Part shown: positions 22,509 to 33,256 of the stretch, piece after piece
How the letters are laid out: each line of letters begins with the position of its first letter
How positions within the stretch are numbered: the stretch's first letter is position 1
Source of the DNA: Escherichia coli
GTDB lineage: Bacteria > Pseudomonadota > Gammaproteobacteria > Enterobacterales > Enterobacteriaceae
Direction: 5' to 3' (one strand)
Length of the DNA: 64,000 nucleotides
NCBI RefSeq assembly: GCF_017348835.2
Contig: NZ_CP071375.1
Notes under the pieces: generated by a model
What the model was told of the DNA's origin: nothing
The model's input: the letters and a program-made list of their open reading frames with translations, nothing else
Databases searched by the model: none
Position numbers and translations under genes: made by a program

Positions 22509-22601
22509 CGGTTACCTTCTCCACTTTCACAGAACATAACGGCACTTTGAACCGCCCCGGAAATCCTGGAGACTAAACTCCCTGAGAAAGAGGTAAACAG
22601 G

Positions 22602-22928
22602 ATGACTAAAAATACTCGTTTTTCCCCCGAAGTCCGTCAGCGGGCGATTCGTATGGTTCTGGAAAGTCAGGATGAATATGACTCACAGTGGGCGGCAATT
22701 TGTTCCATTGCCCCAAAGATTGGCTGTACGCCGGAGACTCTGCGTGTCTGGGTTCGCCAGCATGAGCGGGATACCGGGAGTGGTGATGGTGGACTCACCA
22801 CCGCTGAACGTCAGCGTCTGAAAGAGCTGGAACGTGAAAATCGTGAACTGCGCCGCAGTAACGATATCCTTCGCCAGGCTTCCGCTTATTTTGCGAAGGC
22901 GGAGTTCGACCGCCTCTGGAAAAAATAA
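22602..22928 (+). CDS. IS3-family transposase OrfA (HTH)
   Basis: 108-aa [25 protein letters not shown]... with a C-terminal leucine-zipper-like segment; ends in an A-rich stretch overlapping the orfB ATG. Confidence 0.85.
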
Positions 22929-23815
22929 TGCCACTGCTGGATAAGCTGCGTGAGCAGTACGGGGTCGGACCGGTATGCAGCGAACTGCATATTGCCCCGT
23001 CAACGTATTACCATTGTCAGCAACAGCGACATCATCCGGATAAACGCAGTGCCCGTGCGCAGCACGATGACTGGCTGAAGAAAGAGATACAGCGCGTATA
23101 CGATGAAAATCACCAGGTATACGGTGTGCGTAAAGTCTGGCGTCAGTTGTTACGGGAAGGTATCAGAGTGGCCAGATGCACTGTGGCACGTCTCATGGCA
23201 GTTATGGGACTTGCCGGTGTTCTCCGGGGTAAAAAGGTCCGCACTACCGTCAGCCGGAAAGCCGTTGCCGCATGCGACCGCGTAAACCGTCAGTTCGTGG
23301 CAGAACGTCCAGACCAGTTGTGGGTGGCTGATTTTACCTGGGTAAGCACATGGCAGGGCTTCGTTTATGTGGCGTTCATCATTGATGTGTTCGCCGGATA
23401 CATCGTGGGATGGCAGGTCTCATCATCCATGGAAACAACATTCGTGCTGGATGCACTGGAGCAGGCGTTGTGGGCCCGTCGGCCGTCCGGCACAATCCAT
23501 CACAGTGATAAAGGTTCTCAGTATGTATCGCTGGCCTACACGCAGCGGCTTAAGGAAGCCGGATTACTGGCATCAACAGGGAGTACTGGCGACTCGTATG
23601 ACAACGCGATGGCTGAGAGCATCAATGGTCTTTACAAAGCGGAGGTAATACACCGTAAGAGCTGGAAAAACCGGACAGAAGTGGAACTGGCCACACTAAC
23701 GTGGGTGGACTGGTATAACAATCGACGATTGCTGGAAAGGCTGGGCCATATTCCTCCGGCAGAAGCAGAAAAAGCTTATTATGCTTCCATCGGAAATAAT
23801 GATCTGGCAGCCTGA
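22928..23815 (+). CDS. IS3-family transposase OrfB (DDE integrase core), probably expressed as an OrfAB fusion by -1 frameshifting
   Basis: 295-aa ORF with an rve-type DDE catalytic region (…HSDKGSQYVS…DNAMAES…). Confidence 0.85.
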   Translation: MPLLDKLREQYGVGPVCSELHIAPSTYYHCQQQRHHPDKRSARAQHDDWLKKEIQRVYDENHQVYGVRKVWRQLLREGIRVARCTVARLMAVMGLAGVLRGKKVRTTVSRKAVAACDRVNRQFVAERPDQLWVADFTWVSTWQGFVYVAFIIDVFAGYIVGWQVSSSMETTFVLDALEQALWARRPSGTIHHSDKGSQYVSLAYTQRLKEAGLLASTGSTGDSYDNAMAESINGLYKAEVIHRKSWKNRTEVELATLTWVDWYNNRRLLERLGHIPPAEAEKAYYASIGNNDLAA

Positions 23816-24045
23816 GTTCACAGATAAAACACTCTCCAGGAAACCCGGGGCGGTTCAAACTCGTACAGTGGCGTACCACTGGGGTCCATTCCTTCAAGTC
23901 TCAGGGAAGCCTCTGCTTTGCGGAAGCCCTCAATGCGTAACCGTGTATAGGGAGTCCTAGACATGTTTTTCCTTTGAGTTGCAGGAGTGAGGTTCGCTCA
24001 GTGAAAGCGTCAGCTCACGCAACCTCGTTAACTGACGCGCGTGAT

Positions 24046-25446
24046 TCAAGATTTATTATTACCCGATAAGCTATCACCGGCAAAATCATCATGTTCGCGG
24101 TTATCCCGACGAGTAGCTGTTTGTTTACTTATCTGAGTCGCCAACTCCTCTCCAATAGTTTGTTGGGCACGAGAAGAACTGCTACTTCGCTTCATTCTCT
24201 GGTACTCAGCAGCTCCGTTAGCCATGCTGCTTCCCATATGGCTTGCCATGCGGCCAGCACGCGAGAATGAAGCAAACCCCTGACTTCCTCCACTGGCGCT
24301 ACCTGAACTGCTCCCTGCAGACGAACCACTGTAACCGCCTGAGGTTTGGCCTCCAGAAGTATCTACAGAACCGGTATCTTCCCCGCCGCCAAATCCTCCA
24401 CCGGAACCGCCTCCGCTGCCTGAACCAGATTCTTCGTCCATGGCAGCTTGCGCAGACTCGAATGCTGCCTTTAATGCTGAAGCTCCGCCGCTGACTTGAG
24501 CTGATGCCCCCATTGCCATTGCTCCAGCACCGCTGATGGCAGTAGCGGCTGCGCCGGTAATCATACCCGCCCCAAATCCACCAATCCCTTGTAAAGAAGC
24601 CCCTCCTACAACACCTGATAACAACAGTGGTAGCTTATTAGTTAATACTAACAGGATAATTGACGCCAGAAGCAAAACTATAAGACTATTAAGATCAGGA
24701 ACATCATCTTTAATAAGAGAAAAATATTGATCTATAAATGATTGTCCAATCCCAATAATTAATGTCATCGTGAATAATTGAATGCCAATCGATAAAACAG
24801 TTCGTAAGTAATTAATTGCTATATCAGAGGTCCATTTCGAACCACCAAACCCAAGCAATATAACTCCTGCATAACATAACACCCATGCAGAAACCAACAT
24901 GATTAGCATATTTATCGCTATAAGGGACATCACTACCAAAACGATTATCGCGACTGTTATCATAATGGTGGATATCATTGGCGACCAAATTGATGCGGCT
25001 GAACTGATCTTGGTTAATATCGCAAACGCCATATCAACTATGCTTGAGGGAGAAATACCAATACTTATTTCTAAAGCGTTTGCTGCAAGTTGTCTCATTG
25101 AATTAATTATGGATTGCGATATGGATGGACCGTTGATTAAAAGATAATAAAAAAAACCAATGACGGCAAAAAAGCGAACTATTTCAGCAAGTACCCCTGT
25201 CAACCCTTCCCCTTGCATCGCCATCATACCAAATGTCCAAACCATACTTATTAATACCAGCCCCCAGAAGAGCCAATTTGCATAGTCAGCAATTACTGCT
25301 GTCCATGTACTGGCTACTTGTTGAAACTTATCTAATAAAGTATCAAGTAGCCCGCTACTATCTAATTGACCAGCATAGGCATTAATAGAAAAGAAAAGTA
25401 TGATACCTAAAAAGGTGAGCTTACTTACTATTTTCATGATTACCAT
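24046..25446 (-). CDS. TrbL/VirB6-like type IV secretion membrane protein with a Gly/Ser-rich C-terminal tail
   Basis: 466-aa ORF with signal peptide, multiple TM segments and a low-complexity GSGSGGGSGGG tail as in P-type TrbL; gene order trbJ-trbK-trbL. Confidence 0.65.
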   Translation of the reverse strand: MVIMKIVSKLTFLGIILFFSINAYAGQLDSSGLLDTLLDKFQQVASTWTAVIADYANWLFWGLVLISMVWTFGMMAMQGEGLTGVLAEIVRFFAVIGFFYYLLINGPSISQSIINSMRQLAANALEISIGISPSSIVDMAFAILTKISSAASIWSPMISTIMITVAIIVLVVMSLIAINMLIMLVSAWVLCYAGVILLGFGGSKWTSDIAINYLRTVLSIGIQLFTMTLIIGIGQSFIDQYFSLIKDDVPDLNSLIVLLLASIILLVLTNKLPLLLSGVVGGASLQGIGGFGAGMITGAAATAISGAGAMAMGASAQVSGGASALKAAFESAQAAMDEESGSGSGGGSGGGFGGGEDTGSVDTSGGQTSGGYSGSSAGSSSGSASGGSQGFASFSRAGRMASHMGSSMANGAAEYQRMKRSSSSSRAQQTIGEELATQISKQTATRRDNREHDDFAGDSLSGNNKS

Positions 25447-31705: not shown

Positions 31706-31761
31706 ATTGCTCTCCTGGCGTAGAAAAAAGAAGCACACCAACTTAACTTACTGATTATTAA

Positions 31762-32952
31762 CTACTTACTAGTCCATTCATCAATCATATTCGCCCAATC
31801 TTGTAGCATCTCAGCCCTCTGCTCACGATATTCTGCCTTGTTATAAACAGCTCGTACCCCTTTTTGTTCATGGGCAAGGCTCTTCTCAATCCAGTCAGTA
31901 TTGTACCCGGCCTCATGTAGCAAGGTGCTGGCTGTACGCCGTAAGTCATGGGGACCAAACTTAGGCAACAACTCCCCTTCTTTCTGAGCCAGGCGATACG
32001 TCAGTGTCAAAACCCGGTTTAAAGTAGCGCTACTCATTGGCGCATCGGAATCGTACCGCGAAGGAAGGATAAAATCAGAGCTACCGGCAAAGGTTTTGAG
32101 AGCAATCATAATATCCATTGCCTGTCTGGAAAGAAAAACCAAATGTGGATTACGTCGTTTCATCCTTTCCTTTGGTATCGTCCATAATGCCTCACTAAAA
32201 TTGATCTCGTTCCAGGTTGCGTTAGTAAGCTCACTTTTACGTACCATCGTTAACAGCAAAAGTTTAACCGCTGCTCTGATTGATGGCGTCGTTCCTACCC
32301 GTTCCATGTACCGATACATCAGACCAATTTCAATTGGCGTCAATGCCCTGTCTCGAGGCTCAAATTTCGCTATGCTTGCAGGCCGTACCAGATCAGCAGG
32401 ATTCTCCACCTTCTGACCGCGCTCAATAGCCCAGCGATAGACTTGCAATACAATCTCTCTGGCGTGTACAGCTGTCGCTGGTGCCCCTCTCTCGACAATG
32501 TTATCGGTTAATGCGCGTAAGTCTTCATGTGTAATCTCACTAAGTTTCTGCTGGGCAAATTTTGACTTCAACTCCCTTTGATATACCGAACGCCGCATAT
32601 CACGCGTCGATTCAGCCATTTGATAACCGCGTAACCATTTCTCAGTCCACGCACCAAAAGTCTCCGCATCTTTAATACGCGCTTTATCTCTGGCTTTTTC
32701 CCTCGCAGGCGATATTCCACTGGCAACCATTTTTTTGGCTTCATTGAGCCGTTCACGCGCTTCTGCAAGCGTGATCCCTCCAACACCATAGCGGCCAAAA
32801 ATAACAGTCTCCTGTCTTCCGTTTATTGAATAGTTATAACGAAATGAAATAGTTCCAGCCGGAGTGACCGCAACATACAGACCATCACGGTCATTAACTT
32901 TATAGAGTTTCTCCTTCGGCTTAAGGTGACGCAGCCTGGTGTCAGTCAACAT
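31762..32952 (-). CDS. int: P4-type tyrosine integrase (site-specific recombinase)
   Basis: 396-aa ORF with an N-terminal Arm-type domain (MLTDTRLRHLKPKEK...) and a C-terminal catalytic region (…HDLRRTASTLL…LAH…VRAVYN…); lies about 300 bp from the guaA 3' end. Confidence 0.85.
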   Translation of the reverse strand: MLTDTRLRHLKPKEKLYKVNDRDGLYVAVTPAGTISFRYNYSINGRQETVIFGRYGVGGITLAEARERLNEAKKMVASGISPAREKARDKARIKDAETFGAWTEKWLRGYQMAESTRDMRRSVYQRELKSKFAQQKLSEITHEDLRALTDNIVERGAPATAVHAREIVLQVYRWAIERGQKVENPADLVRPASIAKFEPRDRALTPIEIGLMYRYMERVGTTPSIRAAVKLLLLTMVRKSELTNATWNEINFSEALWTIPKERMKRRNPHLVFLSRQAMDIMIALKTFAGSSDFILPSRYDSDAPMSSATLNRVLTLTYRLAQKEGELLPKFGPHDLRRTASTLLHEAGYNTDWIEKSLAHEQKGVRAVYNKAEYREQRAEMLQDWANMIDEWTSK

Positions 32953-33175
32953 GGTTTATTGTTTTCCTTTATCAAAAATACCATGTTGTAAAAAATTCAG
33001 AAAAGTTGTTTAACTATCTGTTTTTAATTGAGTTATAAAAAAAATACCATAACTCAACCGAAATTTATCACATGGTACTTTTTCAAACCTGAATTCGAAA
33101 CCAGAGAGTACCATCAAAAATTCCATTGAAAAAACCGTGCTTCCCGTTGCTAACAGCTGCCAGAAAGTGCCAGAC

Positions 33176-33207
33176 ACAAAAACAAAAAAGCCCGCAGTTA
33201 CGCGGGC
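33176..33207 (-). terminator. Rho-independent terminator of guaA
   Basis: Hairpin GCCCGCGTAACTGCGGGC followed by a U-run on the minus-strand transcript (plus strand AAAAAAGCCCGCAGTTACGCGGGC), 50 bp after the guaA stop. Confidence 0.75.
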
Positions 33208-33256
33208 TTAGAGGTACTTTACTGCTTTTACGTGCAGGCTGTTGCCAGACGTTAAA

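Follow-up and report, generated by a model that had tools for sequence, protein, structure and literature searches.

A probable PIME1-type integrative mobilizable element at guaA of Escherichia coli, truncated at IS629 and carrying matches to the KorB operator

The stretch of Escherichia coli DNA analyzed here (the window, 64,000 nucleotides of contig NZ_CP071375.1, assembly GCF_017348835.2) carries a low-GC island between a copy of the insertion sequence IS629 and the guaA stop codon at 33257. We identify positions 23858 to 33269, with a probability of about 90%, as the guaA-proximal 9.4 kb of a PIME1-type integrative mobilizable element belonging to the wider GIsul2/IncP-island group, an assignment that is made from sequence comparison. 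An element of this kind normally bears antiphage cargo; here it appears to have been beheaded and immobilized by IS629, in a host that is also missing yfgH and yfgI. The island is a decayed member of an already described family, and the locus taken alone is a case of routine island decay. Three stages of that decay are preserved in related genomes, namely intact (locus L004), IS-inserted (strain F2_81) and deleted (the window and strain PE164). Matches to the KorB operator, conserved at island-specific positions, provide a lead on how PIMEs sense a helper plasmid, and the relationship of the transfer genes to one clade of IncP-1 plasmids bears on which plasmid mobilizes E. coli PIME1.

Gene content and transfer origin of the guaA island

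The founding example of PIME1 is a 22.2-kb element at guaA of E. coli RHB23-C07, which carries int, alpA, luxR, repA, traJ, trbJ and trbL and no relaxase, and in which the nick site of IncP is conserved and an inverted repeat of 17 bp is present (bioRxiv 10.64898/2026.01.12.698999). To establish the gene content of the window from yfgG to guaA, we compared an open reading frame listing, NCBIfam, precomputed Pfam, PHROGs and the RefSeq annotation, which agree (Table 1). All five genes that define a PIME (Perta et al. 2026) were identified in the island by NCBIfam, Pfam, PHROG or PDB matches. The core genes all lie on the minus strand and a luxR-like gene lies on the plus strand, divergent from alpA, which is the arrangement that characterizes PIME1.

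The IncP-like origin of transfer (oriT) of a PIME is also present. The nick-site motif GTCCTG|C stands eight bases past the 17-nt inverted repeat, placing the predicted nick at 26978/26979 on the plus strand. The region aligns with the oriT of both R751 and pHKSHmcr1_P2_p1, the nick-region block GGGCAGGACATGTAAAGT being identical to that of pHKSHmcr1 (18/18), and the Rfam traJ-II motif RF01760 scored 86.9 bits at 26883-26981, where the gathering score is 40. A non-coding stretch of 676 bp separates traJ from the initiator gene of the replication module.

A first-pass annotation, made from the letters of the window and their open reading frames, had described an integrative element at the 3' end of guaA. 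The genes it described were found where it had placed them (open reading frames, NCBIfam, Pfam and RefSeq), and family matches bore out its repA helicase, alpA, P4-type integrase, trbJ and trbL. Its "mobC-like" gene, on the other hand, proved to be traJ, as judged from the NF010451 equivalog match and the NikA-like Pfam match given in Table 1, and two genes, the luxR-like gene and the gene for a 209-aa membrane protein, had been left unlisted. It was right that the island has no resistance genes or ISCR cargo and no relaxase, coupling protein or further type IV secretion system genes.

The insertion at guaA is supported by several observations. The GC content is 37-47% in the island and 50-56% in the flanks, the integrase gene starts 304 bp from the guaA stop codon, and the attachment (att) core AAATCATTCCCACTCA overlaps the last four codons and the stop codon of guaA. 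In K-12 the order is yfgG-yfgH-yfgI-guaA with the island absent, so that K-12 represents the empty site, as the first-pass annotation had expected. Nor is the island part of the universal E. coli gene content: at least 80% of its core was found in 29 of 5426 complete E. coli genomes, always in the chromosome, and some part of the core was matched in 127 of them. Positions 22000-33400 of the window are 100% identical to the chromosome of the E. coli pig strain PE164. No tRNA gene was found in the 64-kb window.

Truncation at IS629 and the history of the locus

Intact relatives of the island are bounded by a direct repeat, AAATCATTCCCACTC(A), of 15-16 bp, with one copy at guaA and the other adjoining yfgI. 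The two copies lie at 5985 and 19668 in relative locus L002, giving a 13.7-kb element, and at 3152 and 19922 in L004, giving a 16.8-kb element. A second att core that would bound the island as attL or attR was not found in the window, the distal copy having been deleted. Excision by site-specific recombination is therefore impossible, because only one att site is left. The earlier description of the element as probably non-autonomous holds as far as the missing relaxase and coupling protein are concerned, but it understates the loss.

The distal end is truncated, as had been proposed, and the IS3-family element at that end is IS629, which over its 1310 bp shares 99.5% identity with the annotated IS629 of phage BP-4795. 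Among the intact relatives L004 comes closest, matching the window at 99.96% identity over 10.1 kb. The alignments of the window with its relatives stop at IS629 within a higA-like gene, breaking at 12561 in L004 and at 10270 in L002; both of these loci have the full gene (144 aa; 12456-12890 in L004). Beyond higA, L004 continues with genes that have CTD12, MC8 and DUF2326 domains, a helicase gene and a DprA-like gene. An intermediate arrangement is found in strain F2_81 (L020, NZ_CP043542.1, 4671-6500; pig, Australia), which has the same IS629, differing by 1 nt, at the same point of higA and with the cargo still attached. Missing from the window are the cargo and the distal att site as well as yfgI and yfgH, and on its left side IS629 adjoins the point 37 bp beyond the yfgG stop codon. 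No target-site duplication was found at the IS629 of the window, the flanking triplets being CTT and AAC.

The simplest history to be read from these sequences has three steps. A 16.8-kb element would have integrated at guaA, IS629 would then have entered the higA-like gene that lies immediately beyond trbL, and an IS-adjacent deletion would have removed about 7.4 kb of the island together with 1.4 kb of the chromosome, taking the cargo and the distal att site along with yfgI and yfgH. The PE164 copy is a locked-in remnant that is unable to excise.

Relatives and their cargo

Elements with the same backbone, at 50-88% protein identity, were found in Morganella morganii, Pseudomonas aeruginosa, Vibrio and Achromobacter, and a relaxase is present in some of them. 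In the P. aeruginosa, Vibrio and Achromobacter elements and in one M. morganii locus, the junction with guaA can be seen.

The slot after trbL and higA holds candidate defense cargo that differs from one relative to the next (L002, 6081-10375; L003, 1-7490; L004, 13202-19797; L025, 4266-8452). The types observed are ABC-three-component systems of two kinds, a DEAD-box helicase with DUF2290, a 5.3-kb gene with a reverse-transcriptase domain, and a helicase accompanied by a DprA-like gene. Such variety agrees with the description of an immune hot spot in the PIME preprint (bioRxiv 10.64898/2026.01.12.698999).

At the same guaA site, E. coli S30 (L026, 9001-15049) and about 90 other E. coli genomes carry a mosaic relative. 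Its int, traJ, trbJ and trbL are similar to those of the window, its replication protein (330 aa) and its luxR-like gene are different ones, and a gene for an EexN-family lipoprotein stands where the window has the 209-aa gene. The annotation of E. coli M8 (L025) gives traJ (11643-11996) as a pseudogene containing an internal stop, in an element that otherwise looks intact, which suggests that mobilization genes decay beyond the lineage of the window as well.

KorB operator matches in the island

The KorB operator (O_B) has as its consensus the 13-bp palindrome TTTAGC(C/G)GCTAAA (PMC2680271, PMC11790492). Four matches were found in the 64-kb window, where 0.07 would be expected by chance, and all four lie inside the island. 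The operator at the 5' end of trbJ is also present in R751, pHKSHmcr1_P2_p1 and GIsul2; it is an inheritance from IncP-1, and the other three sit in parts of the island that have no IncP descent. One of these lies in a stretch of 577 bp without an annotated gene (30432-31008), between the convergent luxR-like and 209-aa genes, in which there was no Rfam match.

The sites are conserved. All four are kept in relatives that are 98-99.96% identical and in a clade at 94.7%, and match 2 is kept in L002, L003, L004, L025 and L026. The S30 mosaic, despite its different Rep gene and the different genes lying from int to luxR, has two exact O_B sites, one at 61 nt past the end of int and the other at 21 nt past the end of the luxR-like gene, and an O_B is found 3-61 nt after the int stop codon in L021, L022 and L026. 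The P. aeruginosa, Achromobacter and relaxase-bearing E. coli elements have one O_B each, in the short gap from the int region to the luxR-like stop codon, the last two of these having it 3 nt downstream of the int stop codon. Two are found in the Vibrio element, between int and alpA. No O_B was found in two elements that combine the RepA/initiator module of the island with transfer genes of non-IncP type. As a caveat to the KorB lead, the retrieved M. morganii loci have O_B only after traJ and in trbJ.

No operators for KorA (GTTTAGCTAAAC) were found in the island beyond chance, and no homologs of KorA, TrbA, KorC, KorB or IncC are encoded in it. Since the island encodes no kor homologs, the O_B sites, if they are used, must rely on KorB encoded by a plasmid. 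The PIME preprint states that the inducing signal is unknown and does not mention KorB (bioRxiv 10.64898/2026.01.12.698999), and our literature search found no paper tying KorB operators to such islands.

A candidate helper plasmid and a proposed life cycle

The transfer proteins were compared with those of two kinds of IncP-1 plasmid. TrbJ is 84-87% identical to its counterparts in the pHKSHmcr1 clade (86% for pHKSHmcr1_P2_p1) as against 57% for R751, TraJ is 65-69% identical as against 46%, and TrbL about 58% as against 48%. The trbK-like open reading frame matches TrbK of the IncP-1 plasmid pHKSHmcr1_P2_p1 in position and length, with 24% identity (pairwise E = 5e-5). No plasmid with a near-identical TraJ was found, the best match being 69%. 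Because the pHKSHmcr1 clade is a far nearer match than R751 for TrbJ and for the oriT nick region, we consider enterobacterial IncP-1 plasmids of the pHKSHmcr1 type to be the candidate mobilizing helper for E. coli PIME1. The clade comprises enterobacterial IncP-1 plasmids of 41-57 kb, present in 57-76 of the 5426 complete E. coli genomes, and its representative (L012, NZ_MF136778.1) carries mcr-1. Neither PE164 nor F2_81 appears among the 60 records listed of the 76 with pHKSHmcr1-clade plasmids.

The PIME relatives do not excise spontaneously; the IncP-1 plasmids pB10 and pKJK5 cause them to excise and circularize, an effect that IncN, IncX and IncL/M plasmids do not have; excision requires int, luxR and alpA; and repA with the origin of replication (oriV) forms a functional replicon (bioRxiv 10.64898/2026.01.12.698999). 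From the gene content of the island we infer a corresponding cycle for the intact element, in which Int, AlpA and the LuxR-like regulator would perform excision, and the RepA helicase, the winged-helix initiator and the 21-bp iterons would perform replication. The island TraJ would bind its own inverted repeat and recruit the relaxase of the helper to the conserved nick site, and transfer would use the pore of the helper. For GIsul2, a review has proposed that TrbJ, TrbK and TrbL substitute for pore and exclusion components (PMC5704250). By analogy, TrbJ, TrbK and TrbL of the island probably replace the pore and entry-exclusion components of the helper, in line with the identity to the plasmid proteins being 86% for TrbJ and only 24% for TrbK.

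The O_B matches could connect this cycle to the arrival of the helper. KorB, made only by an incoming IncP-1 plasmid, would load on the O_B sites of the island, and the loaded KorB would either switch the regulatory region of the island toward excision or allow the excised replicon to ride on the IncC-KorB partition system of the plasmid. With O_B common across IncP-1 plasmids but the TraJ/oriT inverted repeat specific to a clade, pB10 and pKJK5 would induce E. coli PIME1 but be unable to mobilize it. That the O_B matches are working sites for reading or exploiting the helper, and that the mobilizing helper is the pHKSHmcr1_P2_p1 clade of IncP-1, is a tentative proposal to which we give somewhat less than even odds. 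As for the locked-in copy in the window, a cognate relaxase may still be able to nick the plus strand at oriT, leading to transfer of the chromosome toward int, guaA and guaB.

Alternative readings of the island

The first-pass annotation had likened the element to GIsul2, and part of this comparison stands. GIsul2 is a relative, with the same att site at guaA, the same order from int through alpA and repA to trbJKL, an integrase at 86.6% identity and AlpA at 79%. If the island were strictly a GIsul2 variant that has merely lost the ars and CR2-sul2 cargo, however, its DNA would hardly be only 65-72% similar, the luxR-like, 209-aa, traJ, initiator and trbK genes would not all lack a match, the IncQ-type RepC of GIsul2 would not be missing from it, and TrbJ and TrbL would be closer than 52% and 45%. 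We regard this strict form of the comparison as unlikely. The divergent luxR-like gene and the TraJ with its oriT make PIME1 the closest described family.

The IncP-1 descent of TraJ, oriT and TrbJ/K/L, with TrbJ at 86% to an IncP-1 clade, could also suggest a decayed integrative and conjugative element or a fragment of an integrated IncP-1 plasmid that once had a full transfer system. Such an origin is very improbable, since the att-bounded intact relatives are only 13.7-16.8 kb long and have the same limited gene set besides their cargo, the guaA loci of P. aeruginosa, Vibrio and Achromobacter have the same set, as does M. morganii, where it accompanies int, and there is no trfA, korA/B or other trb or tra gene. 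We rejected it for the small att-bounded relatives with their limited gene set. A P4-like satellite prophage remnant, which the P4-type integrase and the AlpA regulator might bring to mind, is scarcely credible: no genes of the capsid-size, primase (alpha) or psu/delta type are found, and conjugation genes and an oriT stand in their place. It was rejected on both counts.

Identification of the island as the remnant of a PIME1-type element, with the history and cycle proposed for it, has three points to contend with, and these weigh against it. E. coli PIME1 is induced but poorly mobilized by pB10 and pKJK5 (bioRxiv 10.64898/2026.01.12.698999). The role proposed for TrbJ, TrbK and TrbL draws on a review and on the analogy with SGI1. 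Finally, a clean 3-bp duplication is not found at the IS629 of F2_81, where GAT precedes and AAC follows the insertion sequence and the uninterrupted sequence reads GAC.

Replication module and other features

The replication module includes repA, whose product is related to the hexameric helicase of RSF1010. A G-to-T change converts GAA to TAA at 28333-28331, a nonsense mutation that shortens RepA from 285 to 271 aa (14 aa lost) and abolishes the overlap of repA with the initiator gene. The mutation is shared with F2_81 and is not found in L002, L003 or L004.

The 253-aa open reading frame that follows had been called repC-like. Its sequence gave no significant match in NCBIfam, Pfam, PHROGs or a PDB profile search, and comparison with GIsul2 RepC gave an hhalign probability of 6.8% and no tblastn match; the fold search alone was informative. 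Because of the predicted fold and the 21-bp iterons beside the gene, it is best named a winged-helix initiator. The "repC-like" label thus fails as a statement about sequence, membership of the RepC family not being demonstrable, but a role as RepC is plausible from the modeled fold and the adjacent iterons. An AT-rich stretch (62-70% AT at 27016-27265) comes after the iterons of the candidate oriV. A search of the oriV-oriT intergenic region gave no DnaA box, and there is no gene for a RepB primase in the island.

The product of the luxR-like gene had no significant match in NCBIfam, Pfam, PHROGs or a PDB profile search; it is 40-46% identical to its counterparts in the M. morganii and P. aeruginosa elements. 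The same four sources gave no family match for the 209-aa protein.

Table 1. Coordinates of the features of the guaA island and of the adjoining IS629, as positions in the 64-kb window.
Feature	Position	Strand	Basis and remarks
IS629 (IS3 family)	22548-23857	+	1310 bp; terminal inverted repeats of 25-27 nt, TG...CA ends; NF033516 312 bits
IS629 orfA; orfB	22602-22928; 22928-23815		Joined by a -1 frameshift; pseudoknot 22883-22999 (Rfam ALIL, 120 bits)
higA-like antitoxin gene, first 106 nt	23859-23964	-	Interrupted by IS629
trbL	24046-25437	-	VirB6-like mating-pore subunit; TIGR02783 TrbL_P 270 bits (cut-off 128.85); Pfam PF04610
trbK-like gene	25440-25613	-	57-aa lipoprotein, candidate entry-exclusion protein; N-terminus resembles a lipoprotein signal
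trbJ	25625-26419	-	VirB5-like pore subunit; NF010452 379 bits (cut-off 286)
O_B match 1	26366-26378		Exact; in the trbJ 5' end
traJ	26500-26853	-	oriT-binding relaxosome accessory protein; NF010451 equivalog 160 bits (cut-off 134); Pfam NikA-like
IncP-type oriT	26866-26990	+	17-nt inverted repeat 26934-26950 / 26954-26970, upstream of traJ
O_B match 2	27253-27265		Exact; between oriV and oriT
Candidate oriV	27482-27558	-	Three 21-bp iterons and one degenerate copy, straddling the initiator stop codon
Initiator gene	27541-28302	-	253 aa; predicted fold of an iteron-binding winged-helix initiator
repA	28331-29146	-	RSF1010-type hexameric helicase; E = 4e-110 to PDB 1G8Y; Pfam AAA_25
alpA	29152-29382	-	Excisionase/transcriptional regulator; Pfam PF05930; PHROG 2790 "excisionase and transcriptional regulator"
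luxR-like regulator gene	29460-30431	+	Divergent from alpA; RefSeq label "LuxR family transcriptional regulator"
O_B match 3	30857-30869		One mismatch (central A); between the 3' ends of the luxR-like and 209-aa genes
Gene for 209-aa predicted membrane protein	31009-31638	-	Bracketed by two O_B matches
O_B match 4	31693-31705		Exact; 57 nt after the int stop codon
int	31762-32952	-	P4-type tyrosine integrase; Pfam Arm-DNA-bind_3, Phage_int_M, Phage_integrase; NF007246 149 bits
Terminator-like hairpin, island-borne	33188-33209	-	Just downstream of the guaA stop; the hairpin of K-12 between guaA and yfgI is at the same place
att core, sole remaining copy	33254-33269		Last four codons and stop codon of guaA; one copy in the window

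Elsewhere in the window, a gene for a 2136-aa protein with adhesion domains (37976-44386, minus strand) follows xseA, where several other E. coli have yfgJ-der directly after xseA; it is probably a separate variable insertion. The pdeF open reading frame (19722-21965, minus strand) is uninterrupted and encodes 747 aa as in K-12, although in the RefSeq record of PE164 it is marked as a pseudogene on account of an internal stop.

Comparison with known systems

The island resembles several known systems in part. SGI1, which serves as an analogy only, depends on IncC plasmids, has no relaxase and encodes a small number of mating-pore subunits akin to those of the helper (PMC5704250), while its genes, helper group and integration site are all unrelated to those of the island. 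With RSF1010 and the IncQ plasmids the island shares the RepA helicase and the placement of iterons beside the initiator gene, but its initiator has no sequence relationship to IncQ RepC and it has no RepB primase gene. The IncP-1 plasmids (R751 of the beta group and the pHKSHmcr1_P2_p1 clade) share with it the architecture of oriT, the nick region, TraJ, TrbJ, TrbK, TrbL and the KorB operator, whereas the relaxase, coupling protein, pilus genes, trfA and kor genes of these plasmids are all missing from the island.

GIsul2 (R485, NC_016036.1) uses the same att site at the 3' end of guaA and has the same gene order. Identity to the window is 86.6% for Int, 79.4% for AlpA, 61.7% for RepA, 52.3% for TrbJ and, over part of the length, 44.7% for TrbL. 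At the DNA level int, alpA and repA align at 65-72%, and outside these genes only an 82-bp stretch of trbJ aligns (82%). The GIsul2 region has no match to the luxR-like gene, traJ, the 209-aa gene, the initiator gene or trbK, and it has one O_B, at the trbJ 5' end, compared with four in the window island. The IncQ-type RepC and the ars/resG and ISCR2-sul2 cargo are found in GIsul2 only.

PIME1 (PIME1EcRHB23-C07) differs from the copy in the window in that the latter has lost its cargo and distal att site through the IS629-associated deletion and carries the nonsense mutation in repA. The cargo of PIME1EcRHB23-C07 is Lamassu and that of the intact lineage of the window is of the ABC-three-component type, the two being compared by description. 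In both, the defense cargo follows trbL, in the case of the window as seen in its intact relatives, and PIME1 and the island have in common the guaA site, the gene directions, the divergent luxR-like gene, the IncP-like oriT and the lack of a relaxase.

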